Origin: an uncultured virus (IMG/VR IMGVR_UViG_3300032820_000002)
Taxonomy: Duplodnaviria > Heunggongvirae > Uroviricota > Caudoviricetes
DNA: 56,658 bases
Strand: one strand, 5' to 3'
Virus record (IMG/VR): IMGVR_UViG_3300032820_000002
Below are positions 4,528 to 56,350 of this stretch, piece after piece; positions within the stretch are counted from its first letter, which is position 1; each line of letters opens with the position of its first letter. The notes below the pieces were generated by a model. It did no database searches. It was not told where the DNA came from and saw only the letters and a program-made list of their open reading frames with translations. Made by a program: the position numbers and the translations under genes.

Positions 4528-4561
4528 AATGATAAATACAATTATACTAGGAGCAAACTAA

Positions 4562-29456: not shown

Positions 29457-30132
29457 TAAACCGCATGTATGTAAGTATTGTGGAACAGGCTACACACGAG
29501 AAAAAACGCTTGCTGTTCATATGTGCGAAAAAAAACGTCGGCATTTACAAAAAGATGAAAAGCGAGTACAACTAGGATATTTAACATTTAATCGATTTTA
29601 TCAATTATGTCAAAAATTTGAAGGAAATAAAACTTACGAAGAATTTTGTAAAAGTCCTTATTATAATGCCTTTGTTAAATTTGGTAGCTTTGTTAATAAT
29701 GTTAGACCTTTATATCCTGACAAATATATAGACTATGTAGTAAAAAGTGGAGTTAAATTAGATCATTGGACAAAAGAAGAATTATATGAAAAATATGCTC
29801 TAGAATTAATACTTAAAGAAGGAGTAGAAACTGCATTAGAACGATCAATAATAACTATGATGGAATGGGCAGAAGAAAATAATTCAGTATGGAATCATTA
29901 TTTTAATTATATTAATTTAAATAGAGCAATATGGCACATAAAGGACGGAAAAATATCTCCTTGGCTTATATTAAATTGTGCTAGTGGAAAAGAAATGGTA
30001 AGTAAATTTAATGACGAACAATTAGAAATTGTTTATCTTATTATGAATCCAGAACATTGGACTATGCGCTTCAAGCGACAATCCAATGATGTTCAACTTG
30101 TTAAAGAAATTGTAAAAGAGAGTAAACTATGA
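29449..30132 (+). CDS. Zinc-finger (CxxC...H.C) hypothetical protein
   Basis: HVCKYCGTGYTREKTLAVHMC. Confidence 0.7.
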   Translation: MNSKPHVCKYCGTGYTREKTLAVHMCEKKRRHLQKDEKRVQLGYLTFNRFYQLCQKFEGNKTYEEFCKSPYYNAFVKFGSFVNNVRPLYPDKYIDYVVKSGVKLDHWTKEELYEKYALELILKEGVETALERSIITMMEWAEENNSVWNHYFNYINLNRAIWHIKDGKISPWLILNCASGKEMVSKFNDEQLEIVYLIMNPEHWTMRFKRQSNDVQLVKEIVKESKL

Positions 30133-30623
30133 ACTTGATATATTATCCTCATAAATTCCTTAATAAAAAAGTTTCTGATGTAAATATTGAAGATCCAGGA
30201 TTTAATCTTCACGAAGTAAAAGAACACATGACAGATATAATGCTATCTAATAGAGGCATAGGATTATCTGCTAATCAAGTTGAACTAGACTATCAGTTAT
30301 TCATTATGGGTTCTGAAACTGATAATACAATTATGTGTATCAATCCTGTAATACTACAGCATACAGAAGAAACAACAACTGACTTAGAAGGATGTTTAAG
30401 TTTTCCAAATATATATGTAAACATTCCACGACCTAAAGAAATACTTGCGAAATGGTATGATGAAAATCTAGTAGAAAGATGTCAAAAAATAGAAAACTAT
30501 ACAACTAAATGTTTTTTACATGAATGGGATCATTTACAAGGTGTTAACATTATTGACAGAGTATCAAAATTAAAATGGAATATGGCTAAAAAGAAAGCTA
30601 GAAAGTTAACAAAAAATGCCTGA
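30129..30623 (+). CDS. def: Peptide deformylase
   Basis: GIGLSANQV, INP, EGCLSFP, HEWDHLQG. Confidence 0.95.
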   Translation: MNLIYYPHKFLNKKVSDVNIEDPGFNLHEVKEHMTDIMLSNRGIGLSANQVELDYQLFIMGSETDNTIMCINPVILQHTEETTTDLEGCLSFPNIYVNIPRPKEILAKWYDENLVERCQKIENYTTKCFLHEWDHLQGVNIIDRVSKLKWNMAKKKARKLTKNA

Positions 30624-31176
30624 TATTGATATAGATTTTAGTAATAGAGATGAATTACTTGACAAACTCAAACACAGGGTTGCAAAATTAGATTCAGGTA
30701 AAAAACATAATACAGGTATATATGTTACAGAAATACCCCACAATCCTATAAATAATTTGTCAACAATAGATTATAAAAAAGCAGAAGATAGAGGCTATTT
30801 TAAATTAGATATTCTTAATGTAAACATATATAAAGATATTAAAGACGAAGCACATCTTATTAAATTAATAAACAAGGAACCGTTATGGGATTTACTACAA
30901 GAAAACCAGTTCGTCGATCTGTTATTTCACTTGAACGGGCATGGCGGGGTACTGAAGAAAACTTGTCCGACTTCGGTGGAACAATTAGCTGCCGTTCTTG
31001 CGATGATACGCCCCGCGAAACGCTATTTGATTGGGAAGCCATGGACTTTGGTGATGAAGAACGTTTGGAAGAAACCGGAGAATGACGAGTACTTTTTTAA
31101 AAAAGCACATGCATTTGCATATGCAATTAGTGTAATAGTTCATATGAATCTATTATGCGAACAAGCTAATACTTAA
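30616..31176 (+). CDS. Miniature DnaE-like (family C polymerase) palm/fingers protein
   Basis: MPDIDIDF, KH.TG.Y, GYFKLDIL, LA..LA.IRP, FKKAHA.AYA. Confidence 0.85.
   Translation: MPDIDIDFSNRDELLDKLKHRVAKLDSGKKHNTGIYVTEIPHNPINNLSTIDYKKAEDRGYFKLDILNVNIYKDIKDEAHLIKLINKEPLWDLLQENQFVDLLFHLNGHGGVLKKTCPTSVEQLAAVLAMIRPAKRYLIGKPWTLVMKNVWKKPENDEYFFKKAHAFAYAISVIVHMNLLCEQANT
30885..31085 (+). CDS. Candidate overprinted 66-aa gene nested in mini-dnaE
   Basis: AAGGA RBS 6 nt before ATG; dnaE third positions turn G/C-rich only across this interval. Confidence 0.5.
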   Translation: MGFTTRKPVRRSVISLERAWRGTEENLSDFGGTISCRSCDDTPRETLFDWEAMDFGDEERLEETGE

Positions 31177-31548: not shown

Positions 31549-31570
31549 TTTCTCGATAAATAGTATTATT

Positions 31571-32359
31571 ATGCAAATACTGCCTAGATATTTAGTCAAT
31601 AACCAAATTACCATTATTGCTAATGAAGCGGGACTCATTACGGAGTACAGACCCATGTATCAAAGAAATATACAAGTATATAGAAATATAGATAATGTTT
31701 TACAATTTAGATTATTAAACTCAGATCAAAAACCACTAGATGTAAGTGTTTATACTCCTAAATTTGTAGCATTTGATGAAAACAACACACTTATTATAGA
31801 GCACAACGGTGTTGTGCTTCCTGGGGACGATTCTTCTCCAACTAGGGGATTATTTTCTGTAACAGTTACAGAAAATGATTTATTAAATATTAAACAGCAA
31901 TTTTTAAGTTATAATGTTTATCTAGTAGATGCAGATAATAATAAAGTATTAACATATACTGATACACAATTTAGTAACGCTGGAGTTATATATGTTAATT
32001 CAGAAGCATTTCCTGGACCTTCTCCAACATATAGTGTTACTCAATTCCAACAATATAACTTTTCAAGTGAAGAGTATATAAGTGAATCTTTATCAGCAGA
32101 GCCTGCTATTAATGGAAATGAAGCATTACATACAGCCGCAGTATATACTAGTTCATATATCGGAAACATTATTGTACAAGCTACTTTAGAAAATAGTGTA
32201 ACAGAATCAACTGCCTGGGCAGATGTTCAAACAGTTGCGTTTTCTGGTGCAGAAACTCAACCTACACCAATTAATTTTAATGGAGTTTTTAACCATTTAA
32301 GATTTAAAACAGATGCTAATCCTACTGATAAAATAAGTAAAATTCTCGTTAGAAACTGA
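31571..32359 (+). CDS. Probable virion structural (beta-rich) protein (start refined to ATG 31571)
   Basis: TAAATA at 31557-31562; N..QF.L.N.DQKP, QATL, F.GVF..LRF. Confidence 0.6.
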   Translation: MQILPRYLVNNQITIIANEAGLITEYRPMYQRNIQVYRNIDNVLQFRLLNSDQKPLDVSVYTPKFVAFDENNTLIIEHNGVVLPGDDSSPTRGLFSVTVTENDLLNIKQQFLSYNVYLVDADNNKVLTYTDTQFSNAGVIYVNSEAFPGPSPTYSVTQFQQYNFSSEEYISESLSAEPAINGNEALHTAAVYTSSYIGNIIVQATLENSVTESTAWADVQTVAFSGAETQPTPINFNGVFNHLRFKTDANPTDKISKILVRN

Positions 32360-33378: not shown

Positions 33379-33500
33379 AAAAATTATTAAAAAAGTTAAA
33401 AGATTTTATTTTGTGGCCGTATACTGCTTGGAAGGAACATAAAGAATTTAAAAAAAAGATGGAAGAATTACGGAAGAGAGATCCGTTTATATATAGATGA
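33366..33500 (+). CDS. 44-aa basic peptide coupled to carbamoyltransferase
   Basis: MVWLKKLL...ELRKRDPFIYR; stop overlaps next start (ATGA). Confidence 0.65.
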   Translation: MVWLKKLLKKLKDFILWPYTAWKEHKEFKKKMEELRKRDPFIYR

Positions 33501-35026
33501 TAGTTTGGGGGATATCAGCTAACAGTCATGACGCTGCTTTAGCTGTATTTAAATGTAAACATCTTACAGAATGGATGGAGTTTTTTCCTTATTATTGGGC
33601 AAGTGCTAAAGCTATCCAGGACCTAGAAATTAAATTTGCTAGTCATTCTGAGCGGTTTAGTAAAATAAAAAACGATCCACATCTACATAAAGACTTAATA
33701 AAATATGCTTTACAATGGGGTTATCCTCAAAAAATAATTTGGTACGAAAACCCTTACAAAAAAACGTTAAGACAATTAATAGCAGGACAAGGATGGAATT
33801 ATAAAGAAAATAATATTAAAACTTATTTGCGGAAGTACAACATTAATGCTCCTATTAGTTATAGGAATCATCATAGTTGCCATGCTGCCGGTGGCTATTT
33901 TACTAGTCGGTTTAATAACGCTACTATCGTATGCCTTGACGCAATTGGAGAATTTGAAACTTTAACTATATGGAAGGCAAAAGGTTCTTCCATAAAACGA
34001 ATTTATTCTCAGCGGTATCCTCATAGTGTAGGATTGTGGTATTCAGCTATGACTCAGCGCATAGGATTAAACCCTAATGAAGATGAATACATTTTGATGG
34101 GAATGGCTGCATTTGGAGACCCTCATAGATTACATTCAGAAATAATATATGATTTTATAGAGCAATTTCCTGTAGCATCAAATCCTAAAATAAAATTTAA
34201 ACGTAATTTACATAGAGGATTGCGTGATTGGCGACCTGATTTAAAAACAAAACAAGACATATATGATATAGCTGCTGCTACTCAATATATATACGAACAA
34301 ATTTTAAATAATATATTAGAGTGGGCTAAAGATAATTCTTCAAGTAAAAACTTAGTCATTATGGGAGGGTGTGCATTAAACTGTTCAGCTAACAGTATAG
34401 CATATCGATATTTTGATAATGTTTGGATAATGCCTAATCCAAACGATGCAGGATCTGCTATGGGAGCAGTATTAGACTATTATAAGCAACACATAAAATG
34501 GAAGGGAGCATACCTTGGTTATGATATACATCAACCTTACCCTATAAAAAAATTAATAAACGATCTTATATCTATAGGAATAGTAGGTGTTGCAAATGGT
34601 AAAGCAGAATTTGGCCCTCGAGCTTTAGGCAATCGAAGTTTATTAGCAGACCCGCGTGATGCAAAAATTAAAGATAAAGTTAATGAAATTAAGCGTAGAC
34701 AAAAATTTAGACCATTTGCACCAGTTATACTTGCCGAACATGCAAAAGATATATTTGAAGGTAAAGTGGGCCCTTATATGCAATTTACTGCAATCTGTAA
34801 ATATCCTGAACTTTATCCTGCTATAGTACATGTTGATAATACTTCAAGAGTACAAGCTGTTCCTAATAATGGGAGTGGAATACGCCAATTATTAGAAAAT
34901 TGGTTTGAAGAAACAGGTTGTCCGATGTTATTAAATACTAGTTTAAATATTAAAGGAAAACCGATGGTTAATACTTTAGATGATGCAAAGGAATTTATGG
35001 ATCTTTATGGAGTAAATGTATATTGA
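33497..35026 (+). CDS. Carbamoyltransferase (NodU/CmcH family)
   Basis: HDAA, ERFS..K, HH..HAA, DAIGE, EY.LMGMA..G, GGCALNC, EFGPRALGNRS, FRPFAP, HVD.TSRVQ, LLNTSLN. Confidence 0.95.
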   Translation: MIVWGISANSHDAALAVFKCKHLTEWMEFFPYYWASAKAIQDLEIKFASHSERFSKIKNDPHLHKDLIKYALQWGYPQKIIWYENPYKKTLRQLIAGQGWNYKENNIKTYLRKYNINAPISYRNHHSCHAAGGYFTSRFNNATIVCLDAIGEFETLTIWKAKGSSIKRIYSQRYPHSVGLWYSAMTQRIGLNPNEDEYILMGMAAFGDPHRLHSEIIYDFIEQFPVASNPKIKFKRNLHRGLRDWRPDLKTKQDIYDIAAATQYIYEQILNNILEWAKDNSSSKNLVIMGGCALNCSANSIAYRYFDNVWIMPNPNDAGSAMGAVLDYYKQHIKWKGAYLGYDIHQPYPIKKLINDLISIGIVGVANGKAEFGPRALGNRSLLADPRDAKIKDKVNEIKRRQKFRPFAPVILAEHAKDIFEGKVGPYMQFTAICKYPELYPAIVHVDNTSRVQAVPNNGSGIRQLLENWFEETGCPMLLNTSLNIKGKPMVNTLDDAKEFMDLYGVNVY

Positions 35027-35051
35027 CAAATATTGATAGAGAGCGTATAAT
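35023..35051 (+). promoter_or_regulatory. Consensus sigma70 promoter, probably leaderless
   Basis: TTGACA (overlapping upstream TGA stop)-17-TATAAT; ATG 6 nt downstream. Confidence 0.85.
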
Positions 35052-35057
35052 AAAATA

Positions 35058-36482
35058 ATGTCTACTAGACAAAATACTGATTATGGTTACGATATACAAA
35101 AAGTATATCTTGAAATGATGTTGACTGATGCTGAGAGTTTTATTAGATGTCAGACTGTATTTAATACAAACTTTTTTGATAGACGTTTACAAGATGCGGC
35201 TAAATTTCTTAGTGATTATGTAAGTGAGCATAATGGATTACCTACATTTGAAATGGTAAATGCAGCAACTAAAGCAGAATTACTTCATCCAGGAGAATTA
35301 AGAGAAAGTCATTATGATTGGTTATTAGATGAATTTGAAACTTTTAGTAGGCATAAAGCATTAGAAGCTGCAATTCTTAAAGGTGCAGATTTATTAGAAA
35401 AAGGCGAATATGGCCCTGTAGAAGACTTAGTTAAAAAGGCTGTACAAATAGGTTTACAAAAAGATTTAGGTACAGACTATTTTGGAGACCCTCGTGGAAG
35501 ATTAGAAGCAATAAAGGGTGCAAATGGTCAAGTAAGTACAGGCTGGGAAAGTTTAGATAAAAAATTATTTGGAGGATTTAATAGAGGCGAACTTAATATA
35601 TTTGCAGGTGGCTCTGGAGCAGGTAAAAGTTTATTTCTTACTAATATCGGAGTTAACTTTGCAGAAAAGGGAATGAATGTATTATACATAACTTTTGAAC
35701 TTAGTGAAAACTTAGTTAGTATGCGTGTAGATAGTATGCTTACAGGTATCGGCACACGAGATATTTTTAAAAATATTGATAATGTTGAAATGAAAGTTAA
35801 AATGATAGGTAAGAAAAGTGGAGCATTTCAAGTTAAGTATATGCCGAGTGGTAAGACTCCAAACGATGTACGTAGTTATATAAAAGAATATGAAATTAAA
35901 ACAGAAAAGAAAGTTGACGTATTATTACTTGATTATTTAGATTTACTAATGCCTAATGGTGCAAAAGTAAGTGCAGAAAATTTATACATTAAAGATAAAT
36001 TTGTAAGTGAAGAATTACGTAATTTAGCAATGGAACTTAATACAATATTTGTTACAGCGGCACAATTAAATCGTGGTGCCGTAGAAGAAATTGAATTTGA
36101 TCATAGTCATATTTCAGGAGGTCTTAGTAAGATTCAAACAGCAGACAATGTATTTGGTATTTTTACTAGTCGTGCTATGAGAGAGCGAGGACGCTATCAA
36201 ATACAATTAATGAAAACACGTAGTTCAAGTGGTGTTGGTTCTAAAATTGATTTAGGATTTGATGTTGATAGTTTACGTATTATTGACCTTCATGAAGACG
36301 ATACCGATTATCCTACACCTAGTAGTAGCATTATTAATTCTCTTAAACGTTCTACAGCATCACAAACTGCATCGCCAGAATTTAATGAAGACCCCAATGA
36401 AGGAGCTCCGGTAGGAAGAATTCGAGCAAAAACTGATAGCACTAAATTAAGAGAATTTTTAAATAATCTAGGGAACGAATAA
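35058..36482 (+). CDS. Replicative helicase (T4 gp41/DnaB-like)
   Basis: GGSGAGKS, YITFEL, LDYLDL, TAAQLNR, TAD, MKTR. Confidence 0.93.
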   Translation: MSTRQNTDYGYDIQKVYLEMMLTDAESFIRCQTVFNTNFFDRRLQDAAKFLSDYVSEHNGLPTFEMVNAATKAELLHPGELRESHYDWLLDEFETFSRHKALEAAILKGADLLEKGEYGPVEDLVKKAVQIGLQKDLGTDYFGDPRGRLEAIKGANGQVSTGWESLDKKLFGGFNRGELNIFAGGSGAGKSLFLTNIGVNFAEKGMNVLYITFELSENLVSMRVDSMLTGIGTRDIFKNIDNVEMKVKMIGKKSGAFQVKYMPSGKTPNDVRSYIKEYEIKTEKKVDVLLLDYLDLLMPNGAKVSAENLYIKDKFVSEELRNLAMELNTIFVTAAQLNRGAVEEIEFDHSHISGGLSKIQTADNVFGIFTSRAMRERGRYQIQLMKTRSSSGVGSKIDLGFDVDSLRIIDLHEDDTDYPTPSSSIINSLKRSTASQTASPEFNEDPNEGAPVGRIRAKTDSTKLREFLNNLGNE

Positions 36483-36490
36483 ATTTAATA

Positions 36491-37093
36491 ATGGCCGGAA
36501 TAGTAGTTTTATTATCAGGAAATGGAAGTAACTTGCAGGCAATAATAGATGCAGGTATTCCTGTAAAATATGTTTTATCTGATAATCCTGATGCTTACGG
36601 TTTAATAAGAGCAAGGAATGCAGGTATTCCTATACAAGCAGTTCCGAGTCTTAAACAACTAGAAAACTTTACAACAAAAGTATGTGAATTATATGAGATA
36701 AAATTAATAGTACTTGCTGGGTTTATGCGTATCTTAAGCCCTAAATTTGTGCAACGTTGGAAATCACAAATAATTAATATTCATCCATCTTTGCTTCCTG
36801 ACTTTAAAGGAACGAGTGCTATAGAAGAAGCATTTGATGCTGGTGTAAATACAACTGGAGTTACAATACATTATGTAGATGAAGGCATGGATACTGGTGA
36901 TATTATAGAACAATATCCTTTAACTATTTTAACAAAAGAAGAAGTAATACCACTTTCATCAAATTTTGAAGGTACAAATTTTGCAAAGCATAATGCAATA
37001 GATACATTAGAACAACTATCTCTAAGAATTCATAAAATAGAACATGAACACTATCCTAAAGTTATTAAAAAATTGTTAAAGGAAGAAATATGA
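36491..37093 (+). CDS. purN: Phosphoribosylglycinamide formyltransferase
   Basis: SGNGSNLQA, LAGFMRIL, NIHPSLLP.F.G, TGVTIHYVDEG.D.G. Confidence 0.95.
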   Translation: MAGIVVLLSGNGSNLQAIIDAGIPVKYVLSDNPDAYGLIRARNAGIPIQAVPSLKQLENFTTKVCELYEIKLIVLAGFMRILSPKFVQRWKSQIINIHPSLLPDFKGTSAIEEAFDAGVNTTGVTIHYVDEGMDTGDIIEQYPLTILTKEEVIPLSSNFEGTNFAKHNAIDTLEQLSLRIHKIEHEHYPKVIKKLLKEEI

Positions 37094-37395
37094 TAGACAA
37101 ACAATTAATCATAGAAAATTTGAAAGAAGTATATGATCCAGAAATGGAAGGTATCAACGTATACGATCTAGGATTAATATACGATATCAAGATTAATGCA
37201 AAAGATCAATGGGTAGAGATTACACATACATTGACTAGTGCTTTTTGTCCATTCGCAGAGCAAATGGTTGCAGATATAACGAAAGCAGGATATGTGTCCG
37301 AAGTACTCAACGTAGAAGTGATTACCACATTTGATCCACCATTTACTATGGACATGGTTCCAGAAGAAACAAAAATGATGATGGGATGGTTTTAA
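37090..37395 (+). CDS. Fe-S assembly SufT/DUF59-family protein
   Basis: VYDPE...[20 protein letters not shown]. Confidence 0.9.
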
Positions 37396-37568
37396 TGGAA
37401 TATAAAAAATGGCAATGTATGGCTTGTGATTATATCTATGACGAAGAACTAGGCGACAAAGAAGAAGGATTCGCACCTGGTACTAGATGGGAAGATATAC
37501 CCGATGATTGGTATTGCCCTGACTGTGGTGCAATGAAAGATATGTTTATGGAAATGAATGATCTATGA
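37395..37568 (+). CDS. Rubredoxin
   Basis: [13 protein letters not shown]....[17 protein letters not shown]. Confidence 0.95.
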
Positions 37569-37789
37569 TAGACATGATTTCAAATTTAGATAAACAACAA
37601 TATGCAAATATAGCACAGTTTTTTATAGAATGGCTAGATGAGCATCCGTTTCCTGAAATGGATGATGATATTCATAGAACAATACGAATGAGTGCTAAAA
37701 CATATCTTAGTTTATATGAAAATTTTTTAGAACTTTATACATATGTTTCTAATAACGAATACTCTACTACTAGTAAAAAGATCCACTAA
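37565..37789 (+). CDS. Hypothetical protein
   Basis: 74 aa, coupled on both sides. Confidence 0.65.
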
Positions 37790-38823
37790 TGACAAAAAGA
37801 ATTTTAAAAGCATTAAAAAAGGAAGACGTTGACAGACCACCATTTTGGTTTATGCGTCAAGCAGGACGTTATTTGCCAGAATATCGAGAGATACGAAAAA
37901 AGCAAAATAACTTTTTAGACTTTTGTTTTAATTCTGAAAAAGCTGCCGAAGTATCTATGCAACCAATTAGACGTTATAAAATGGATGCTGCTATAGTATT
38001 TTCAGATATTCTTGTTGTTCCACATGCCCTTGGACAATCAGTTAAATTTGTTAAAGGAGTAGGTCCTATACTAGAACCTGTTAATGAAGAAAACATTTTA
38101 TCTTCTTTGTCATTAGAAAATATTAATAATAAATTTGACCCTGTATATAATACTTTAACTAGAATTCAAAATGAACTAGATGCTAATACAGCACTTATAG
38201 GATTTGCCGGTGCTCCGTGGACTGTAGCTTTATATATGGTTGAAGGTAAAGGCGGAACTAATGCTGACAAATTACGTACTTTAACAAAAAATAATCCTTC
38301 TGCATTACAAGACTTAATTGAACTTTTGTGTAATGCAACTATAACTTATATTTTAGGACAAATAAAAGCTGGAGCAGAAATTATTCAATTATTTGATAGT
38401 TGGGCTGGTTTACTTTCAAACGAAGGTGATGAAGATTTATTTTTAGATTTAATAATTGAACCTACTAAAAAAATTATAGAAGAAGTAAAAACCGTTTATC
38501 CTAATATACCTATAATAGGTTTTCCTAAAAATGCTAATTTAATGTATAAGACATTTGCAGAAAGAACCGAAGTTGATGGATTAAGTATAGATCACGAAGT
38601 ATCTTTAGACTGGGTTGCAAACGAACTTCAACCTATTTGTACTATTCAAGGTAATTTGGATAATCGGTTAGCAGTAACAGGGGGAGATGAAATGGACTTA
38701 GCTGTAAAGAAAATTTTAGGAACATTAGGTAAAAAGCCTTTTATTTTTAATTTAGGTCATGGTATATTACCTACAACTCCTCCAGAAAACATTGGTCGGA
38801 TATCTAACTTGATAATAAATTAA
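37789..38823 (+). CDS. hemE: Uroporphyrinogen decarboxylase
   Basis: P.WFMRQAGRYLPEY, DAAIVFSDIL, LIGFAGAPWT..LY, QLFDSWAG, QGNLD, FNLGHG. Confidence 0.97.
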   Translation: MTKRILKALKKEDVDRPPFWFMRQAGRYLPEYREIRKKQNNFLDFCFNSEKAAEVSMQPIRRYKMDAAIVFSDILVVPHALGQSVKFVKGVGPILEPVNEENILSSLSLENINNKFDPVYNTLTRIQNELDANTALIGFAGAPWTVALYMVEGKGGTNADKLRTLTKNNPSALQDLIELLCNATITYILGQIKAGAEIIQLFDSWAGLLSNEGDEDLFLDLIIEPTKKIIEEVKTVYPNIPIIGFPKNANLMYKTFAERTEVDGLSIDHEVSLDWVANELQPICTIQGNLDNRLAVTGGDEMDLAVKKILGTLGKKPFIFNLGHGILPTTPPENIGRISNLIIN

Positions 38824-40173
38824 ATGTGCGGAATATTTGGAATATTTGGAAATTTAGATGCAGCTGCCAACACGGCGTTAGGACTTCATGCCCTTCAACA
38901 TAGAGGACAAGAAGGTGCAGGAATTGCGTCTTGGAATTATGGATTACATAGTTATCATGATACTGGAAGAATAGGAGAAATATTTGGGGATGAAAATATT
39001 ATATCTCAACTTCCAGGAAATACTGCTATCGGACATGTACGCTATTCTACTACAGGAGGACCTGGCCAATCAAACGTACAACCACTTAAAGCGAATTTAA
39101 ATTTTGGTGAATTCGCATTAGTCCATAACGGAGATATAACAAATTTTACACAACTAAAAGACGATCTTGTTAATAAAGGATCTTTATTTCAAACAACAGG
39201 TGATACAGAAGTTATACTTCATTTAATGGCAATGCAATCCGGATCTGCATTTGATAAATTTCAAAAAGCATTAAAACAACTAGAAGGTGCTTTTAGTATT
39301 ATTGCAATATACAATAATAAAATGGTTGTTGTAAGAGATCCTTATGGTTTCAGACCATTAGTAATGGGTAAATTAGATGATAGTTATGTTTTTGCATCAG
39401 AAACTTGTGCATTAGATATTATAGGTGCAGACTATGTACGAGAAGTAAATCCTGGAGAATTAATAATAGTTAGTGAAGAAGCAACAGCTTCATCATATCC
39501 TTTCAAAGAAAAAACAAAAAAATTCTGTGTATTTGAACATATATATTTTTCTCGTCCTGATTCTATATATGATGATGAAGTAGTATATGATGTAAGAAAA
39601 CGCATTGGTGCAGAACTTGCAAAAGAAAGTGCAGTAGAAACAGATATTGTTATTCCTGTACCCGATTCGGGCGTGCCTTCAGCGTTAGGTTATTCTCACG
39701 AATCAGGTATTCCTTTTGAAATGGGGATTACACGAAGCCATTATAGAGGTCGTACATTTATTCAACCTGAACAAAAGATACGAGACTTGGGTGTTAAATT
39801 AAAACATAATGCATTAAAAAGTATGAAGGGCAAAACTGTTACAGTAATAGATGATTCAATTGTACGAGGAACAACCGCTAAAAAGATTATTAAGATGCTA
39901 AACAAAGTAGGAGTAGAAGAAATACATGTTAGAATAGCATCTCCTGCTGTAAAATATTCATGCTATTATGGGTTAGACACTCCTACAAAAAAAGAATTAA
40001 TTGCATCACAATATACAGAGCAAGAAGTATGTGATTATATAGGTGCCACATCTTTACGTCACATTAGTATGAAAGCATTATATAAAGCAGTAGGTTCACA
40101 AAAACATTGTGATGCATGCTTTACTGGAAATTACCCAGTAAGCAAGGAGACAAGTTATGGATTTAAGTCCTGA
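38824..40173 (+). CDS. purF: Amidophosphoribosyltransferase (Fe-S type)
   Basis: MCGI, LQHRGQE, GHVRYST, HNG, CVFE.IYFSRPDS, VPDSG, IDDSIVRGTT, CYYG, CDACF. Confidence 0.97.
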   Translation: MCGIFGIFGNLDAAANTALGLHALQHRGQEGAGIASWNYGLHSYHDTGRIGEIFGDENIISQLPGNTAIGHVRYSTTGGPGQSNVQPLKANLNFGEFALVHNGDITNFTQLKDDLVNKGSLFQTTGDTEVILHLMAMQSGSAFDKFQKALKQLEGAFSIIAIYNNKMVVVRDPYGFRPLVMGKLDDSYVFASETCALDIIGADYVREVNPGELIIVSEEATASSYPFKEKTKKFCVFEHIYFSRPDSIYDDEVVYDVRKRIGAELAKESAVETDIVIPVPDSGVPSALGYSHESGIPFEMGITRSHYRGRTFIQPEQKIRDLGVKLKHNALKSMKGKTVTVIDDSIVRGTTAKKIIKMLNKVGVEEIHVRIASPAVKYSCYYGLDTPTKKELIASQYTEQEVCDYIGATSLRHISMKALYKAVGSQKHCDACFTGNYPVSKETSYGFKS

Positions 40174-40498
40174 TTTTGGAAAAATGAAAGATATAGAACT
40201 ATTAGGTTTAGTTGCTTATTGCGAGAAATGGAAGCCTGAAAAAGTATATAATATTGCACATGCAGAAGTTTTTCCTGAACACCAATTAAAAGAAGCAAGA
40301 ATGCCATTTGATAGATGGTTCGAAAAAACTGATCAAACGTTACCCCCAATAGTTCGACAAGAATTAATTCGAGCAGCAGAAATTAATCTTAAAGCAGGAA
40401 GAATGTCTAAATTAGAAGCTGCATATATGAGTACATCTATTTTTCGTAATTGGTATTTTTGGTTTTTTATACTTTCAATTATATGGTGGTGGTTATAA
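40157..40498 (+). CDS. Hypothetical protein with C-terminal membrane anchor
   Basis: AAGGAG RBS; WYFWFFILSIIWWWL end. Confidence 0.7.
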   Translation: MDLSPDFGKMKDIELLGLVAYCEKWKPEKVYNIAHAEVFPEHQLKEARMPFDRWFEKTDQTLPPIVRQELIRAAEINLKAGRMSKLEAAYMSTSIFRNWYFWFFILSIIWWWL

Positions 40499-40502
40499 TA
40501 AA

Positions 40503-41333
40503 ATGACATTATGGATTTTAGGTGATAGTTTTTGTGTAGATTCGGAATTAATAAATCCTGCACCTGTTATATGGCAATGGCACAGGGTCTTAACTAACAA
40601 CTTAAAAATAAAAAATATAAAAGTAATAGCAGAGTTTGGCTCTAGTAATGAGTATATAATAATGTGTTTAATCAACGTTATGAAAGAAGCAAAAGAAAAT
40701 GATATTATAATTGTTCAAACTACAGAGTCTCATCGATATTGGTTTTTAGAAAACCATCCTTGGTATTCAAATATTTATGGAATGATTGATAAAGATAAAA
40801 CATTTAATGGATTAATTAATAAAAATGAAGTTAAAGCTGTAGAATTATATTATAAACATATCCAAAACGAAGAAAAAGATAAGTTAAGACTAGATAGTTA
40901 TTATGCATTATTAAATGAATTTAATAAAAATCTTGCAAAAAGAAATATTAAAATGTATGTTTTACCTGGATTTCAAATGCCTCATTACTTTACTATAAAT
41001 GGATATAATGTTAAAGGAACATTAAATGATATAAGTGTTTCAGAGTTTACTTCAGATAAAGAAGGAGAAGAATGGTTTATTAAAAACCAAGAACCTGATC
41101 GACGTTTAAATCATATGACAAAAGACAATCATATAATATTAGCTGATAAGTTATATGAAACAATTAAATATAAAAAAGATTTAGATTTAACAAGTGGCTT
41201 TAGACAACGATTTCTTAATTTATTAACAGGAAATATGTTTAAAGGTCAATTAAATCCAACTCCAATAGGAAAAGTTTCAGCAGCTGGTACTGGTATGCAA
41301 CACAGGATTAAAGATGAAAACAATTATTTGTGA
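40503..41333 (+). CDS. SGNH/GDSL-like protein
   Basis: ILGDSF, G.SN, T...R, R.NH. Confidence 0.6.
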   Translation: MTLWILGDSFCVDSELINPAPVIWQWHRVLTNNLKIKNIKVIAEFGSSNEYIIMCLINVMKEAKENDIIIVQTTESHRYWFLENHPWYSNIYGMIDKDKTFNGLINKNEVKAVELYYKHIQNEEKDKLRLDSYYALLNEFNKNLAKRNIKMYVLPGFQMPHYFTINGYNVKGTLNDISVSEFTSDKEGEEWFIKNQEPDRRLNHMTKDNHIILADKLYETIKYKKDLDLTSGFRQRFLNLLTGNMFKGQLNPTPIGKVSAAGTGMQHRIKDENNYL

Positions 41334-41694
41334 TATCGACGGTACAATAGTAAAATACATGGGTGGTGAAGGTCACACTGCTGTAGCTCATAAAGAACAC
41401 GAAGCGTTGCCTGGAGTTGTACATAGAATAAGAGAGTGGGAGAAGAAAGGACATAGAATTATTTTAATAACTGGTAGACGTGAAAGTGTTAGAAAAAGAA
41501 CTGAAGAAGAATTAGTTAGATTAGGTATACCATTTGATATTTTATTAATGGGGTATGCTGACGCCGGAAGAATACTTATTAATGATAAAGGATCGGGTGG
41601 AAAAATAAAGGCTCATGCTGTTGTTTTAGAACGCGACGAAGGATGGGAGAAAATAGACTGGGACGCAGTAGGACTAGGGGACATAACTTACTAG
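41314..41694 (+). CDS. HAD-family phosphatase (PNKP 3'-phosphatase-like)
   Basis: CDIDGT, ITGR, INDK. Confidence 0.85.
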   Translation: MKTIICDIDGTIVKYMGGEGHTAVAHKEHEALPGVVHRIREWEKKGHRIILITGRRESVRKRTEEELVRLGIPFDILLMGYADAGRILINDKGSGGKIKAHAVVLERDEGWEKIDWDAVGLGDITY

Positions 41695-41710
41695 AAACAA
41701 AGGAGGTCCG

Positions 41711-41779
41711 ATGATGGAAAATAAAAATAGAGACAAACCTAAAAAAGAAAAAAAGAAACCTAAAAAAGAAAAAAAATAA
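41711..41779 (+). CDS. 22-aa Lys-rich micropeptide
   Basis: AAGGAGGT RBS; MMENKNRDKPKKEKKKPKKEKK. Confidence 0.5.
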   Translation: MMENKNRDKPKKEKKKPKKEKK

Positions 41780-41801
41780 TCCACAGTAGCTCAGGGGCAG
41801 A
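41780..41801 (+). pseudogene. tRNA 5' remnant (Asn-like)
   Basis: TCCACAGTAGCTCAGGGGCAGA matches acceptor 5' strand plus D-arm start; no anticodon or T arm follows. Confidence 0.5.
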
Positions 41802-42881
41802 ATGGAAAATCAAATAACAATAGTAGGTGGAGGGATAATCGGTTCTGCAACTGCATATTTTCTCTCTTTAGAAAAAAATATATCTGTTAAAGTATTAGAA
41901 CGTGATCCTACATATACTAATGCATCTTTTGCAAGATCGTGTGGAGGCTTTAGACATCAATTTGTTACTAAAGAAAATATTTTATTAGGAAAGTTTGGAA
42001 GTGAATTTGTAAAAAAATTTAATACAGATGTACAATGGACACCTAATGGTTACTTACTATTATTTAATGAAGAACAAGCAGACCAACAACGACTAGCTAT
42101 TGAAGAACAATGGAGACACGATGCACCTTCAATATTATTAACAGGTGATAAATTAACAGAAGTTTTTCCTTGGTTAAATTCGGATGGCATAGCTGTTGCA
42201 TCTTATACAGATACAAAAGTAGAAGGTTGGCTAGATCCACATAGTTTACAAAAAGCATTTAAGCAAGAAGCAATTAATAATGGTGTAAACTTTATTAAAG
42301 AAGATGTAAAAAATCTCGATAATTTATCTGATATTATTGTTGTTACAGCAGGATGTTGGACTAAAGAATTATTACCAGATATGCCCGTTGTTCCTCAAAA
42401 ACATACAGTGTTTAATGTAAAAACTCCAACACATATTCCCCAAATGCCTCTTGTGGGCGATTTCACATCAGAAATATATTGGCGCCCTGAAGGAGATGGG
42501 TATATTGTTGCTTCGCCTGTTGGGAGATTTGACCAAACAGATTTAGAACCCGATTGGAATGATTTTGAAAACCTTATATGGGAGAAACTAGCAATGAGAG
42601 CTCCTTTATTTGAAGAAGTTAAAGTAACTAGTGCTTGGGCAGGATATTATGATACTAATCAAACTGATAACAATGCTATTATAGGAAAACACCCTAAGCT
42701 AGACAACGTATATCTAGCATCTGGATTTACTGGACGAGGAGTAATGCAAGCACCGGGTGTAGGAAGAGGATTAACTGAATTAATTACTACAGGTCAATAC
42801 CAAACTATAGATTTGTCATGTTTTGATCCGCAAAGACTAGTTGTCTATGACCGTAACTTCTACGAGCCATATGTGTTATAA
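41802..42881 (+). CDS. FAD-dependent oxidoreductase (DAO/FOXRED1-like)
   Basis: IVGGGIIG, ERDP.Y...S..RS.GG.R.QF, EGW.DP, WAGYYD....D.NAIIG.HP, GF.G.G..QAP.VG. Confidence 0.88.
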   Translation: MENQITIVGGGIIGSATAYFLSLEKNISVKVLERDPTYTNASFARSCGGFRHQFVTKENILLGKFGSEFVKKFNTDVQWTPNGYLLLFNEEQADQQRLAIEEQWRHDAPSILLTGDKLTEVFPWLNSDGIAVASYTDTKVEGWLDPHSLQKAFKQEAINNGVNFIKEDVKNLDNLSDIIVVTAGCWTKELLPDMPVVPQKHTVFNVKTPTHIPQMPLVGDFTSEIYWRPEGDGYIVASPVGRFDQTDLEPDWNDFENLIWEKLAMRAPLFEEVKVTSAWAGYYDTNQTDNNAIIGKHPKLDNVYLASGFTGRGVMQAPGVGRGLTELITTGQYQTIDLSCFDPQRLVVYDRNFYEPYVL

Positions 42882-42900
42882 TAACTAGGTAAATACGTAT

Positions 42901-44088
42901 ATGAAAGCGGCAGAATTCATTACAGAAGATAAAGAAACTGTAAATACTGAAGAATTTAAACAAATTTTATCAACAGGTGTACTAACACTTGGAAAATTAT
43001 TTAATAAAAATCATTTTGAATTACGAATAGTAGGTGGTGCAGTTCGTGACCTATTACTTAATAACTTGCCCAAAGATATCGATCTAGCATCTGATGCAAC
43101 ACCAAACGAAATGATTGAAATATTTGAAAAAAATAAAATTAAGTATATACCTACTGGCTTAGAACACGGAACAGTAACAGTAGTTATAAAAGGCGAACAA
43201 CTAGAAATTACAACGCTACGAGCCGATACAGAACACACTGGCAGACATGCTACTGTTAATTTTATTCGTAATTGGAAAGAAGATGCTAGACGTCGAGACT
43301 TAACATATAATGCTATGTCTTTAGATTTTAATGGGACGCTATATGATTATTTTGATGGAGTTAAAGACTTACAAAATAAAGTAAGTAAATTTGTAGGTGA
43401 TCCTGAAAAACGTATTCAAGAGGACTATTTAAGAATTTTACGTTACTTTAGATTCCAAGGTAGAATGGATACTCCTACTTGGGATAAAGAAACATTAACC
43501 TCTATAAAAGATAATGCAAGTGGCTTAAAACAAATTTCAGGTGAGCGTGTATGGATGGAACTACAAAAAATACTTTTAGGAAAAAACGTAAAAGAAGTAT
43601 TATCATATTTAGAAAAAACAGGAGTATCTAATTATATAAACCTACCAATGGCTAACATTGCTCTAGCTGAAAAATTGAGTACTATGAACAGTCCTATTAT
43701 TCCTTTAGCAAGTTTGATGAATAATGTAAACGATGCAGAGAAAGTTATTGCTGCTTGGAAATTATCAAATGCAGAAAAGCTATTCTTAGTTTTTCTTACT
43801 ACAAATAAAGATACTGAATTAACTCAAGATACTGCTGAAAATTTTGTAGTAGATGGTGATCATCCTTATTTTGTGTATTCATTAGCAATGTTACAAAACA
43901 AAGAAGATATTGCAAGTAAAATTAAAAACTTTCAAAAACCTGAATTCCCAGTTGCTGGTCAAGATTTAGTAGACAAAGGAATGAAGCCCGGACCCGAAAT
44001 TGGACAAACCCTAGAAAAATTACGGGATATTTGGAAATTAGAAAAATATAAACTAGGGAAGGAAGATTTATTAAATAAGATTAGCTAA
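42901..44088 (+). CDS. cca: tRNA nucleotidyltransferase (CCA-adding enzyme, class II)
   Basis: [47 protein letters not shown]. Confidence 0.93.
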
Positions 44089-46972: not shown

Positions 46973-48238
46973 TTATGAATCTCTTTTCATCATTTTAGAT
47001 GCCATTGCTTGAGTTATTTCTTTACCTTTATAATGTACAGTGGCGCTTGGCGCAATTCCTCGTCTACCTTTTTTTGCACTAACTGTATGGTCACCTGATC
47101 TAACATTTGCAGTTGTTAAATCATTTATATTATCAACATTATCCCCAGGGCCAGTTAAATCATAATGTACCATATCTCCATCTTCAGGATCGCGATGTTT
47201 ACCTTTATATGATGTAGAACTATCTGTTTGTTTGCCTGAACTAGGATCAAAATTTCTAGTTATCTGTAACCCACCTATTCTTGGAGTCTTGTGTTGAGTT
47301 TTGTGTCCTTGCCTATTTGTAGTAGTAGTTCCTCCACCACCTATAGTTTTAGTCTGTCCTGTAATTTGGCTACTTGAGACGCTTCGTCCATCATCATCTC
47401 TTCCTTTCGAAATTACACTACCCCTTCCATACTCATAAGTACGTACTTCTTTTTTTACAGATTTTTTATGATCTAAATATGCATGTATCATTTCATCATC
47501 CATATCATGCAACCGTTTCCAGTTTGGGTCATCAACCCACTTAATACCTTCTTCACGATCAGCTTTCATATCTCCTTCAGTAGTTGGTTGATTATTGCCA
47601 GCTTCGGCTTCGGCTCTAGCTATTTTCTTTGCAGCTATCTGGGCAGCACGTGACTTGGCTGCATTAGGATATTGTTTATTATAGTCGACTGCTATCTGTC
47701 CCATGGGAAGCGGCTTTTGGTCCTTTCTCCATGGGCGAGGCATTGGTTTGGTTAGTATCCAAGGTTTGGGATCATCTGCTGTTGGTGTTGCTTGAATAGG
47801 TCTAGGCCCAGGTGGACCTAACTTATCACCGTCCATCGTTCCTCCAGATGCTTTTACTTTATCTTTATAGGCTTGGGTTCTAGCTTTAGTTACTGCATTT
47901 ATTTTTAATTCTTGAGCCTTTATAGCATCAGGATGATGTTGCTCTGGTGGCATTACCATAGAAATAACATTTGATCCAGGAACCTTTTCCCATTTCCCAT
48001 TAGGATTGTCTCTCCAGTATTTTTCATCTGCTGCCTTAGCTACTGCATCTTGTTTTTTCGCTATGCTTGCAAAGTAAGCCCTAGTGTCTGCAGAACCATC
48101 GGGTCTTACAAAGCCAGCAGCAATAGCCTTTTCTCGATTAGCGACCCCACGTGCTGCCCGTTCTTCCCCAGCTCTACCTGTAAAATCATCTAGGTCTTTT
48201 TCTATAACAGGCTTTGATATAAATTCTCGTAAGAACAT
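46973..48238 (-). CDS. Hypothetical low-complexity protein, putative internal head protein
   Basis: 421 aa; N-terminus MFLREFISKPVIE. Confidence 0.7.
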   Translation of the reverse strand: MFLREFISKPVIEKDLDDFTGRAGEERAARGVANREKAIAAGFVRPDGSADTRAYFASIAKKQDAVAKAADEKYWRDNPNGKWEKVPGSNVISMVMPPEQHHPDAIKAQELKINAVTKARTQAYKDKVKASGGTMDGDKLGPPGPRPIQATPTADDPKPWILTKPMPRPWRKDQKPLPMGQIAVDYNKQYPNAAKSRAAQIAAKKIARAEAEAGNNQPTTEGDMKADREEGIKWVDDPNWKRLHDMDDEMIHAYLDHKKSVKKEVRTYEYGRGSVISKGRDDDGRSVSSSQITGQTKTIGGGGTTTTNRQGHKTQHKTPRIGGLQITRNFDPSSGKQTDSSTSYKGKHRDPEDGDMVHYDLTGPGDNVDNINDLTTANVRSGDHTVSAKKGRRGIAPSATVHYKGKEITQAMASKMMKRDS

Positions 48239-51306: not shown

Positions 51307-51621
51307 TTAATTCAATTCGTACTCTGGCATGGTATACCCATTAGCTAAAGTAGCTGACCGTGCATGCCAATGTAAATGATCTGGTACTGCTCGTTGCTGC
51401 CTATCAATATAATAATTGTGTTTGCCAAACTTCTTGTCTGCAACCGTTCGCAAGGCAATCTCCATCTCTGCCCAGTCCCTTGGTGGTATAGACATAGTAT
51501 GGGATTGTCTCCAAACGATCATTGGTACTAAACACGACATGCAATCAATTATAATAAAGCGCGGGTCAGAATCATCATACAAATGTACAATTGTATCTAA
51601 ATTACACAATTCGCAACTCAT
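51307..51621 (-). CDS. HIT-like protein
   Basis: N-terminal CELC and HLHWH triad. Confidence 0.7.
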   Translation of the reverse strand: MSCELCNLDTIVHLYDDSDPRFIIIDCMSCLVPMIVWRQSHTMSIPPRDWAEMEIALRTVADKKFGKHNYYIDRQQRAVPDHLHWHARSATLANGYTMPEYELN

Positions 51622-53610: not shown

Positions 53611-54660
53611 ATGATGTCATCAGAGAAGAACATACATTTTAACACTGAAAAATGGTCTGAGTATTACTCGACTGTACAAAAGTTAAAAGTAATATGCATG
53701 TGTCATGGGGCAGGAAAGTCTACTCTTGCAGTAAAATATCCACATCATTTTTTTGATTTTGATATAGGTGCATCTTGGGTGCTTGGTGTCTGTCTTCGTA
53801 AGGTTCCGGCCGATCATCCTCTTAGACCAGGTAAAATTTTTGGAATAGTATATAAAGACGGCCCAGGTGGCCCTTTTCCAGATGAATTAAACATAGGTGA
53901 AGGTGTTAGAAAATATAAAATTCCTAATAATTTTACAAAAAATCGTGAAGATATTATATACTGGGGACTACCAATAGACGAACCTATTTTTTGGCGCGGC
54001 TCGATCGTTCAAACTTTAAATCGTAACTATATAGATAATGGATGGCTTCTTAAAGATAAAAATAAAGACGACGGTCTTAGACAATTCACTAATGTAATTA
54101 TTGATTTTAAAAAAGCTGGCATTGATACAGTTAATGCAGACGATTATATGGAGTATGGTGAATTTGATTTTTGGGATGAGTTTATAAAAGCGAACATTCA
54201 TGCATTTATAAAACAAGAGAAAATACTATTATGGAACCATCTCGAGCGCACCATGGGCGGTCAGTACAACCATCGGAATGGAGTTCATGTAGGACGTACT
54301 GACCTGTGGATGAATGAATTTCATCCACGCCCCAGTCTGATAGATATAATTAGACCAAACGAAACTATACATCTTAATAATATAAAAAATAGGAATAAAG
54401 ATCAGCGGACCATCGACGTTGCGACTTGGGTTCAATATGGTGATGATCATTATCGAACACTTAAAAGTGCAGCCACTGGCCGTCTTTTTCCCGTACCACC
54501 GTTAAATTTATTTGAATATAATAATTATAAAGAACTAGAAACTAAATGCTTACTACATTATATAAAACATTTTGGCGAAAAGAGACATATGAGTAATTGC
54601 GGTTTAGGACTAAGTCATATGGCTTGGCCCAACTGGCCCTTTCCTCCAGGTTTATTATAA
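53611..54660 (+). CDS. Hypothetical P-loop (kinase-like) protein
   Basis: GAGKSTLA followed by DFD. Confidence 0.6.
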   Translation: MMSSEKNIHFNTEKWSEYYSTVQKLKVICMCHGAGKSTLAVKYPHHFFDFDIGASWVLGVCLRKVPADHPLRPGKIFGIVYKDGPGGPFPDELNIGEGVRKYKIPNNFTKNREDIIYWGLPIDEPIFWRGSIVQTLNRNYIDNGWLLKDKNKDDGLRQFTNVIIDFKKAGIDTVNADDYMEYGEFDFWDEFIKANIHAFIKQEKILLWNHLERTMGGQYNHRNGVHVGRTDLWMNEFHPRPSLIDIIRPNETIHLNNIKNRNKDQRTIDVATWVQYGDDHYRTLKSAATGRLFPVPPLNLFEYNNYKELETKCLLHYIKHFGEKRHMSNCGLGLSHMAWPNWPFPPGLL

Positions 54661-56071: not shown

Positions 56072-56350
56072 TTATTCGTTAAGCACTACGTCTGCGAACG
56101 GTAGTACAAACTTCCAGCCCTTCTCTGTGTCCTCTACAGCGTACAGCTCCTGCTCCATGTCCATAGCAGTCAGTATGCCCTCACGCTCTAGTACACTATG
56201 CCTCACTATAGGTAAGTCAGCTAGGCTATGCATCCCACCTATGCGTCCGAACTCGTCCATAGGAAACGATTGCTTATACGTGCATGGATGGTCTTGTCGT
56301 ATCTGTGTGTTGTTCACAGGTGCGTCGATCGCATCAAATGGTTTACTCAT
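56072..56350 (-). CDS. Hypothetical protein (higher GC)
   Basis: GAGG RBS, ATGA overlap with upstream ORF. Confidence 0.7.
   Translation of the reverse strand: MSKPFDAIDAPVNNTQIRQDHPCTYKQSFPMDEFGRIGGMHSLADLPIVRHSVLEREGILTAMDMEQELYAVEDTEKGWKFVLPFADVVLNE

Follow-up and report, generated by a model that had tools for sequence, protein, structure and literature searches.

Reading frames embedded in another gene are familiar from phages with B in A and E in D in phiX174 and Rz1 in Rz in lambda, E and Rz1 being membrane or lipoprotein lysis factors. The phiX174 A/B overlap and the E lysis gene are also referenced in the main text of PMC8227390, according to which de novo overprinted viral frames have a restricted range, an accessory role and, in +2 frames, high disorder. 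The minimal DNA polymerase III (Pol III) alpha of the group 2.2 jumbo phages has been described as split across two distant genes and as lacking every accessory domain that the cellular enzyme has (main text of Iyer et al. 2021, PMC7824862). Passages of that paper leave the nested gene described here unmentioned, and its one use of 'overlapping' is unrelated. A literature search mostly outside subscription journals, with passages of PMC7824862, PMC9123017 and PMC8227390, brought up no published account of the nested gene; it appears to be new, its class, the overprinted phage accessory gene, being already known.

The polymerase half and its genomic setting

The DNA analysed is a stretch of 56,658 nt (the window), which from its gene content (tail sheath, tail tube, terminase, gp32-like SSB, RecA, UvsW-like helicase, primase and DnaB) is a portion of a T4-like jumbo phage genome. 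The gene that contains the nested frame (30616..31176, + strand, 186 aa) matched PHROG_11778 'DNA polymerase' (E 6e-60), and its family profile matched the Pol III alpha chains 5lew and 7pu7 (E 2-7e-5). Structure matches to its predicted fold (pLDDT 92.6) were all Pol III alpha or PolC chains at ranks 1-16, albeit weak ones (best E 3e-3, none at or below 1e-3). Residues D3, D5, D7 and D65 were invariant in 71 homologs, and the gene order was common to PA5oct, Atu_ph07, RaK2, Yen9-04, SCTP-2, Phosso and the window, these six cultured relatives having 39-50% identity to the polymerase half. The host gene thus resembles the split minimal enzyme of group 2.2 in PHROG family, aspartate motifs and gene neighbourhood, and on these comparisons the aspartate-bearing unit in the window is the C-terminal (metal- and template-binding) half of a split Pol III alpha. 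No second Pol III match that could represent the N-terminal NTP-binding unit was found among the scanned ORFs of the window. The 'mini-DnaE' of the original prediction is thus one half of a split enzyme (as described in the main text of PMC7824862) and not a complete one.

Several other features of the surroundings were noted. A peptide deformylase gene (30129-30623) is inserted immediately upstream of the polymerase half, an arrangement found at 30 of 186 homologous loci, many of which have only 600-nt flanks. Host-like metabolic genes are interspersed in the replication block at 33497-44088 and encode a carbamoyltransferase, a formyltransferase, a uroporphyrinogen decarboxylase, an amidophosphoribosyltransferase-like protein, an FAD oxidoreductase and a poly(A) polymerase/CCA-type enzyme. 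On the - strand a terminator-like hairpin with a T-run (31105-31124) lies within the 3' end of the polymerase gene, and the transcript of the convergent gene could stop there, just short of the nested ORF.

The nested frame and the constraint upon it

It had been predicted that the polymerase gene holds a 66-codon alternate-frame ORF with an AAGGA 6 nt upstream, and that the polymerase frame switches to G/C-ending codons across its span; both observations held. The nested ORF (30885..31085, + strand, 66 aa) is in the +2 frame and its predicted product is a hydrophilic, disordered orphan. Its ATG straddles two polymerase codons, taking its A from Leu90 (TTA) and its TG from Trp91 (TGG), and the internal Shine-Dalgarno (SD)-like AAGGA (30874..30878, + strand) falls in polymerase codons K87-E88, with a 6-nt spacer before the ATG. 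Host-frame GC3 was 38/68 codons within the nested span as against 18/119 elsewhere in the gene, the mean for the 61 ORFs of the window (17,451 codons) being 0.176, and the span holds the top 40-codon GC3 window (0.625) among those ORFs. It is also the sole ATG-started +2-frame ORF of at least 30 codons inside any of them. An open frame with an ATG arose in ~4% of synonymous resamplings of this genome alone, so that in a single genome the ORF is suggestive and homologs are needed. High-GC3 windows were seen in four other ORFs, 56072-56350 (- strand, 0.60), 51307-51621 (- strand, 0.53), 53611-54660 (+ strand, 0.48) and 46973-48238 (- strand, 0.43), which may be wrong-frame calls or additional overlaps.

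Homologs were taken from five scans and six GenBank regions (298 loci), and with nine dropped (8 partial, 1 without a match) and the window added there were 290, of which 208 were distinct and 186 remained at <90% nucleotide identity. Strict carriers, in which the corresponding position has an ATG and the ORF runs to 55 codons or more, made up 146 of these 186 non-redundant homologs, with ORF lengths of mostly 62-67 codons. A quick IQ-TREE phylogeny of the polymerase protein, built with the overlap columns, placed all 146 inside one clade of 174 (SH-aLRT 94, below the starred mark). None of the 12 outgroup rows had the nested ORF, and the six cultured split-Pol III phages among them, unlike the window phage, have stops within the frame; the distribution is accordingly narrower than that of the polymerase frame. 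The carrier label changed 18 times on the tree compared with a shuffled mean of 36.6, and the simplest reading of this pattern would be a single gain in the ancestor of the clade, then repeated losses (~17). Within the clade 28 of the 174 rows failed the strict test, and the nested gene is therefore dispensable or truncatable. Shortened ORFs of 49-57 codons (L068, L071, L207, L215, L284, L017 and L045) include some with CTG or TTG for ATG and several that retain the ATG, while L018 and L134 have full-length ORFs started by GTG; the shortened versions and those with GTG, CTG or TTG starts look like decay stages or alternative starts.

Tests of dual coding used all 174 ingroup rows, which were not selected for the ORF, with expectations that hold the polymerase protein fixed; because the rows are related, the counts overstate independence. 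There were 88 stops in the +2 frame of the overlap, where 812 were expected. The +1 frame was not depleted (1289 observed, 1202 expected) and the antisense frames were mildly below expectation (854/1041, 458/721 and 294/356, observed/expected). Third host positions where T would make a +2 stop carried T in 88 of 1949 cases inside, as against 1936 of 4583 in flanking codons; for the 12 outgroup rows the same sites gave 58/136 and 128/282. This depletion is not a dinucleotide effect, since T at non-stop sites inside with other A/G-starting neighbours stays at 742/2657. Codons 91-152 were open in 147 of the 174 sequences against 0.75 expected, and the same measure applied to four neighbouring genes gave no 20-codon window below 0.25.

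The start signals showed a similar pattern. An ATG was present at the equivalent position in 157 of the 174 ingroup rows and co-occurred with the open frame (150/7/5/12; Fisher p 2e-10, the rows not being independent). An SD core (AGGA, GGAG or GAGG, 4-17 nt upstream of the ATG) was found in 126 of the 146 carriers (33 expected), 8 of the 28 ingroup non-carriers and 0 of the 12 outgroup rows, and was made from differing host codons across the homologs (AAG GA, AGG A, CAG GAG and ATG GAG). Folding of the start region was 1.84 +/- 0.36 kcal/mol weaker than in local synonymous shuffles (a sample of up to 25 carriers, excluding gapped ones).

Synonymous mismatch inside relative to the flanks was 0.71 (95% CI 0.57-0.87) in 64 disjoint pairs with stop-forming sites excluded, the interval spanning 1 in two of three identity bins taken singly and the flank synonymous sites being heavily diverged in most pairs. 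The ORF-less control was underpowered, with ratios of 0.68 (CI 0-2.8) for 6 close pairs and 1.08 (CI 0.78-1.49) for 9 distant pairs. An OLGenie-like NN/NS contrast (1.1-1.5 inside, 1.7-2.1 outside in carriers) is uninformative because ORF-less pairs look similar. Dual-coding constraint had been proposed originally, to be checked in an alignment of homologs for a conserved ATG, for stops in the nested frame and for suppressed synonymous variation. All three came out in favour of a gene; dual coding is strongly supported by this comparative evidence, and the open frame across the homologs is far beyond chance.

The predicted peptide and its possible roles

The peptides of the 146 carriers are hydrophilic (mean GRAVY -1.06), and the product is predicted to be disordered (AlphaFold pLDDT 47.8). 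Compared with what the polymerase sequence alone would yield, the nested frame has an excess of Glu (2.09x), Asp (1.74x) and Gly (1.51x) and a deficit of Lys (0.52x) and Cys (0.35x), with Arg at expectation (1.03x). Among four-fold degenerate host sites at which a stop cannot arise, the base that yields Asp makes up 39% inside (n=587), compared with 6% outside the overlap (n=919) and 4% in relatives lacking the ORF (n=92); the base that yields Cys makes up 12% inside versus 51% outside. These codon comparisons show a composition selected toward Asp and Glu and away from Cys. Gly5, Ala19, Glu24, Glu46, Asp49, Glu51 and Asp56 were kept far oftener in carriers than in non-carriers; at host-free sites in these related rows the figures for carriers and ORF-less rows were 63/72 and 5/14 for Asp49, 68/82 and 2/20 for Glu46, 58/78 and 1/20 for Gly5, and 63/89 and 3/18 for Asp56.

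Otherwise the peptide varies widely. Nested-frame identity is 32% compared with 63% for the polymerase over the same stretch, Met1 is the only invariant residue and net charge ranges from -9 to +14. The basic N-half described originally is common (121 of 146 carriers, with an Arg-rich start), but Arg is no commoner than the polymerase frame forces. The acidic tail likewise applies to the window peptide, whose net charge is +2 over residues 1-30 and -9 from residue 41 on, and to 81 of the 146 carriers, being acidic-aromatic in many lineages, but not to the other 65. A DW[EDG] motif occurs in 50 of the 146. With charge and tail so variable, a single fixed binding mode fits poorly. The CxxC of the prediction, CRSC in the window peptide, is not a family feature, as it occurs in only 11 of the 146 carriers and Cys is at 0.35 of expectation; a zinc-binding CxxC microprotein was rejected on the same figures, conserved cysteines being absent.

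Scans of 61 peptides against Pfam and PHROG gave only single-member matches at E 0.015 or weaker, and no match was found in cultured phages. The ESM Atlas contains the window peptide letter for letter but yielded no feature match, its structure rows resting on a model of pLDDT 0.38. Gene callers have called the nested frame in ~150 clusters, which are predictions and not expression. The ten profile matches that were read, as protein records, comprised calls of the nested frame (45-76 aa), records with a frameshift or a chimeric join, and weak hits; a free-standing copy of the gene elsewhere is conceivable. Three marine RNA runs contained 6-8% of the words and four contigs of 151-250 nt touched the region, one of them, a marine RNA contig, covering 30976-31126; contigs as short as these bear on neither strand, start nor translation.

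The preferred reading, with a probability of about 0.7, is that of a real gene overprinted in the 3' half of the gene for the C-terminal unit of the split mini-Pol III, with a disordered accessory product. It accommodates the conserved start, SD, open frame, lowered synonymous change and acidic, Cys-poor composition shown by the comparisons. Overprinting would have occurred once, in the ancestor of a large uncultured aquatic jumbo phage clade, with repeated loss since, and ribosomes would most likely start internally at the unstructured SD-ATG on the same polycistronic message as the polymerase half. The product, an intrinsically disordered accessory protein of ~65 residues, might act as a charged unfolded binding peptide, its acidic or acidic-aromatic tail docking on the basic surface of a host or phage nucleic-acid-binding protein in the manner of acidic SSB tails and DNA-mimic inhibitors. 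Judged from the alignments, it is very probable that the nested frame is translated, and probable that the peptide itself matters beyond its translation. As to its target, host takeover or counter-defence is a tentative and unconditional guess, and the phage replisome another, held with somewhat less conviction.

No conserved internal promoter for the nested gene was found among the 146 carriers. There is a perfect TATAAATA at 30747-30754 in the polymerase gene, ~137 nt before the nested ATG, a motif depleted in the window (3 compared with 15 expected; ATAAATA 12 compared with 50). TAAATA was present within 270 nt before the nested ATG in just 19 of the 146 carriers, at scattered positions, while 121 of the 146 have it ahead of the virion gene downstream, and an internal late promoter was rejected as a family feature. 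The TAAATA at the 30747 position is common to only one further carrier, L141, and the TATAAATA is possibly a lineage-specific promoter. A sigma-70 scan found sites below chance (6, with 9.9 expected).

Elsewhere in the window copies of ATAAATA, whose likeness was judged by the T4 late promoter consensus, lie at 4532, 5260, 8099, 12823, 31556 and 53597 on the + strand and 53576 on the - strand. Several are 10-40 nt ahead of virion-gene starts and resemble T4-type late promoters with very short leaders. For the structural gene downstream of the polymerase half the start is likely at 31572 rather than 31463. The gap between divergent genes at 31549-31600 and its homologs carry TAAATA on both strands (+ in 121/146 carriers, - in ~116/146), suggesting a conserved back-to-back pair of late promoters.

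One form of the preferred reading, included in its probability and rather unlikely, has the peptide serve the split mini-polymerase as a subunit or regulator, with stoichiometry set through the shared mRNA. Co-location guarantees co-expression, and for an enzyme without accessory domains (main text of PMC7824862) a disordered peptide might conceivably act as a linker or in processivity. However, the 12 outgroup rows, with their six cultured phages, and up to 28 ingroup rows use the polymerase half without the peptide, and published de novo frames are mostly accessory and not core replication proteins (main text of PMC8227390). A polymerase role is unsupported because the enzyme half exists without the peptide in these cultured phages and in many ingroup lineages, and the original suggestion that the peptide might partner or regulate the polymerase fragment found no support past co-location. 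Complex prediction with the polymerase half and the peptide both given as alignments scored 0.00 in two runs, which is evidence neither way. It is distinctly unlikely that the de novo disordered protein is a third component or switch of the minimal polymerase or replisome in a cosmopolitan aquatic jumbo-phage clade; if it were, an overprinted acidic tail would replace the accessory domains that the enzyme lost and the polymerase gene would have given rise to its own regulator.

The main rival, itself unlikely, is that translation is what is selected and the peptide is a tolerated by-product, for example where translation tunes elongation or stability of the mRNA of the polymerase half or shields its 3' part, which faces the convergent gene. 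Low conservation (32% identity), the wide charge range, the variable stop position, the truncated forms of 49-57 codons that keep the ATG and the lack of a predicted fold would all suit such a role, and the acidic, Cys-poor composition would only show that by-products which are sticky or toxic are selected against. Against this, the residues Asp49, Glu46, Gly5 and Asp56 persist at specific positions where the host frame leaves freedom, and synonymous change is lowered at sites unable to form stops. Translational coupling, a related possibility, is without a target because there is no sense gene closely downstream, the next + strand gene beginning ~490 nt past the nested stop.

A programmed frameshift, either from the polymerase N-half into the +2 frame or from the +2 frame into the polymerase C-end, would provide an alternative tail, and a few database proteins (P0150, P0157, P0167, P0169 and P0171) do join the polymerase to the nested frame. 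Such records are, however, singletons that switch at different places, as assembly indels would, and P0137 and P0162 are clear chimeras; the alignment, judged by eye, has no common slippery run. Frameshift entry is excluded in 47 of the 146 carriers because a +2 stop lies just 3-4 codons ahead of the ATG, and with ATG and SD conserved this explanation is highly improbable. The view that there is no gene, and that RNA structure, a recombined segment, dinucleotide bias or the amino-acid needs of the polymerase account for the GC patch and the open frame, can point to the ~4% chance in this genome alone, to the somewhat reduced T at non-stop sites inside and to some stop-poor antisense frames, but it is equally improbable and largely refuted: the consensus fold of 24 sequences reaches -1.55 kcal/mol and none of its 6 pairs covaries, the stop depletion depends on frame, context and clade and is missing from four neighbouring genes, and GC3 of the overlap reverts from 0.475 in carriers to 0.32 in ORF-less relatives (flanks 0.27). 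Frequent stops, normal synonymous rates, RNA structure and a recombined patch had been named at the outset as what would speak against a gene, and the outcome of examining them favours one.

Comparison with known overprinted genes

In a widespread clade of aquatic jumbo phages ~84% of those sampled (146/174) keep the nested gene, which is largely invisible because standard annotation calls one of the two frames only. It places overprinting inside the core of a conserved replication enzyme, and the second frame distorts estimates of selection and codon statistics for the polymerase half. With its one gain, ~17 inferred losses and absence from cultured relatives, the gene offers a natural experiment on how genes arise de novo and decay, for which relatives in the ancestral state are obtainable at the bench.

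Acidic or acidic-aromatic tails and DNA mimics are known from the C-terminal tails of SSB, the tail of T7 gp2.5 and the proteins Ocr and Ugi. The likeness to these lies in the selected enrichment of Asp and Glu and in DW[EDG] in 50 of the 146 carriers; with homology undetectable and the tail not acidic in 65 of 146, it could serve as a lead only. In phiX174 B in A and E in D and in lambda Rz1 in Rz, a phage gene likewise lies wholly within another frame and has a ribosome-binding site of its own, and B lies in a replication gene as the nested ORF lies in a polymerase gene. A nested lysis or membrane gene of the kind of phiX174 E, MS2 L or Rz1 was rejected; no hydrophobic or membrane segment was seen among the 146 carrier peptides (maximum 17-residue hydropathy 1.0), Cys is depleted and the Pfam and PHROG scans gave no sequence link to E or Rz1.

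The nested gene also resembles the de novo overprinted viral genes of PMC8227390, as described in its main text, which also overlap internally on the same strand, have a narrow range set against a widespread ancestral frame, are without remote homologs, are disorder-prone and are dispensable in some lineages. Those sets are largely from RNA or small viruses and 75% of their overlaps are +1, whereas the nested gene is +2. Also unlike them, its host frame is the core of a DNA polymerase on contigs of up to 236-365 kb with little need of compaction, which is an unlikely driver because the genomes are several hundred kb. Four of five features of overprinted genes are seen in the sequence comparisons, namely an open frame, start signals, synonymous suppression and a narrow range.
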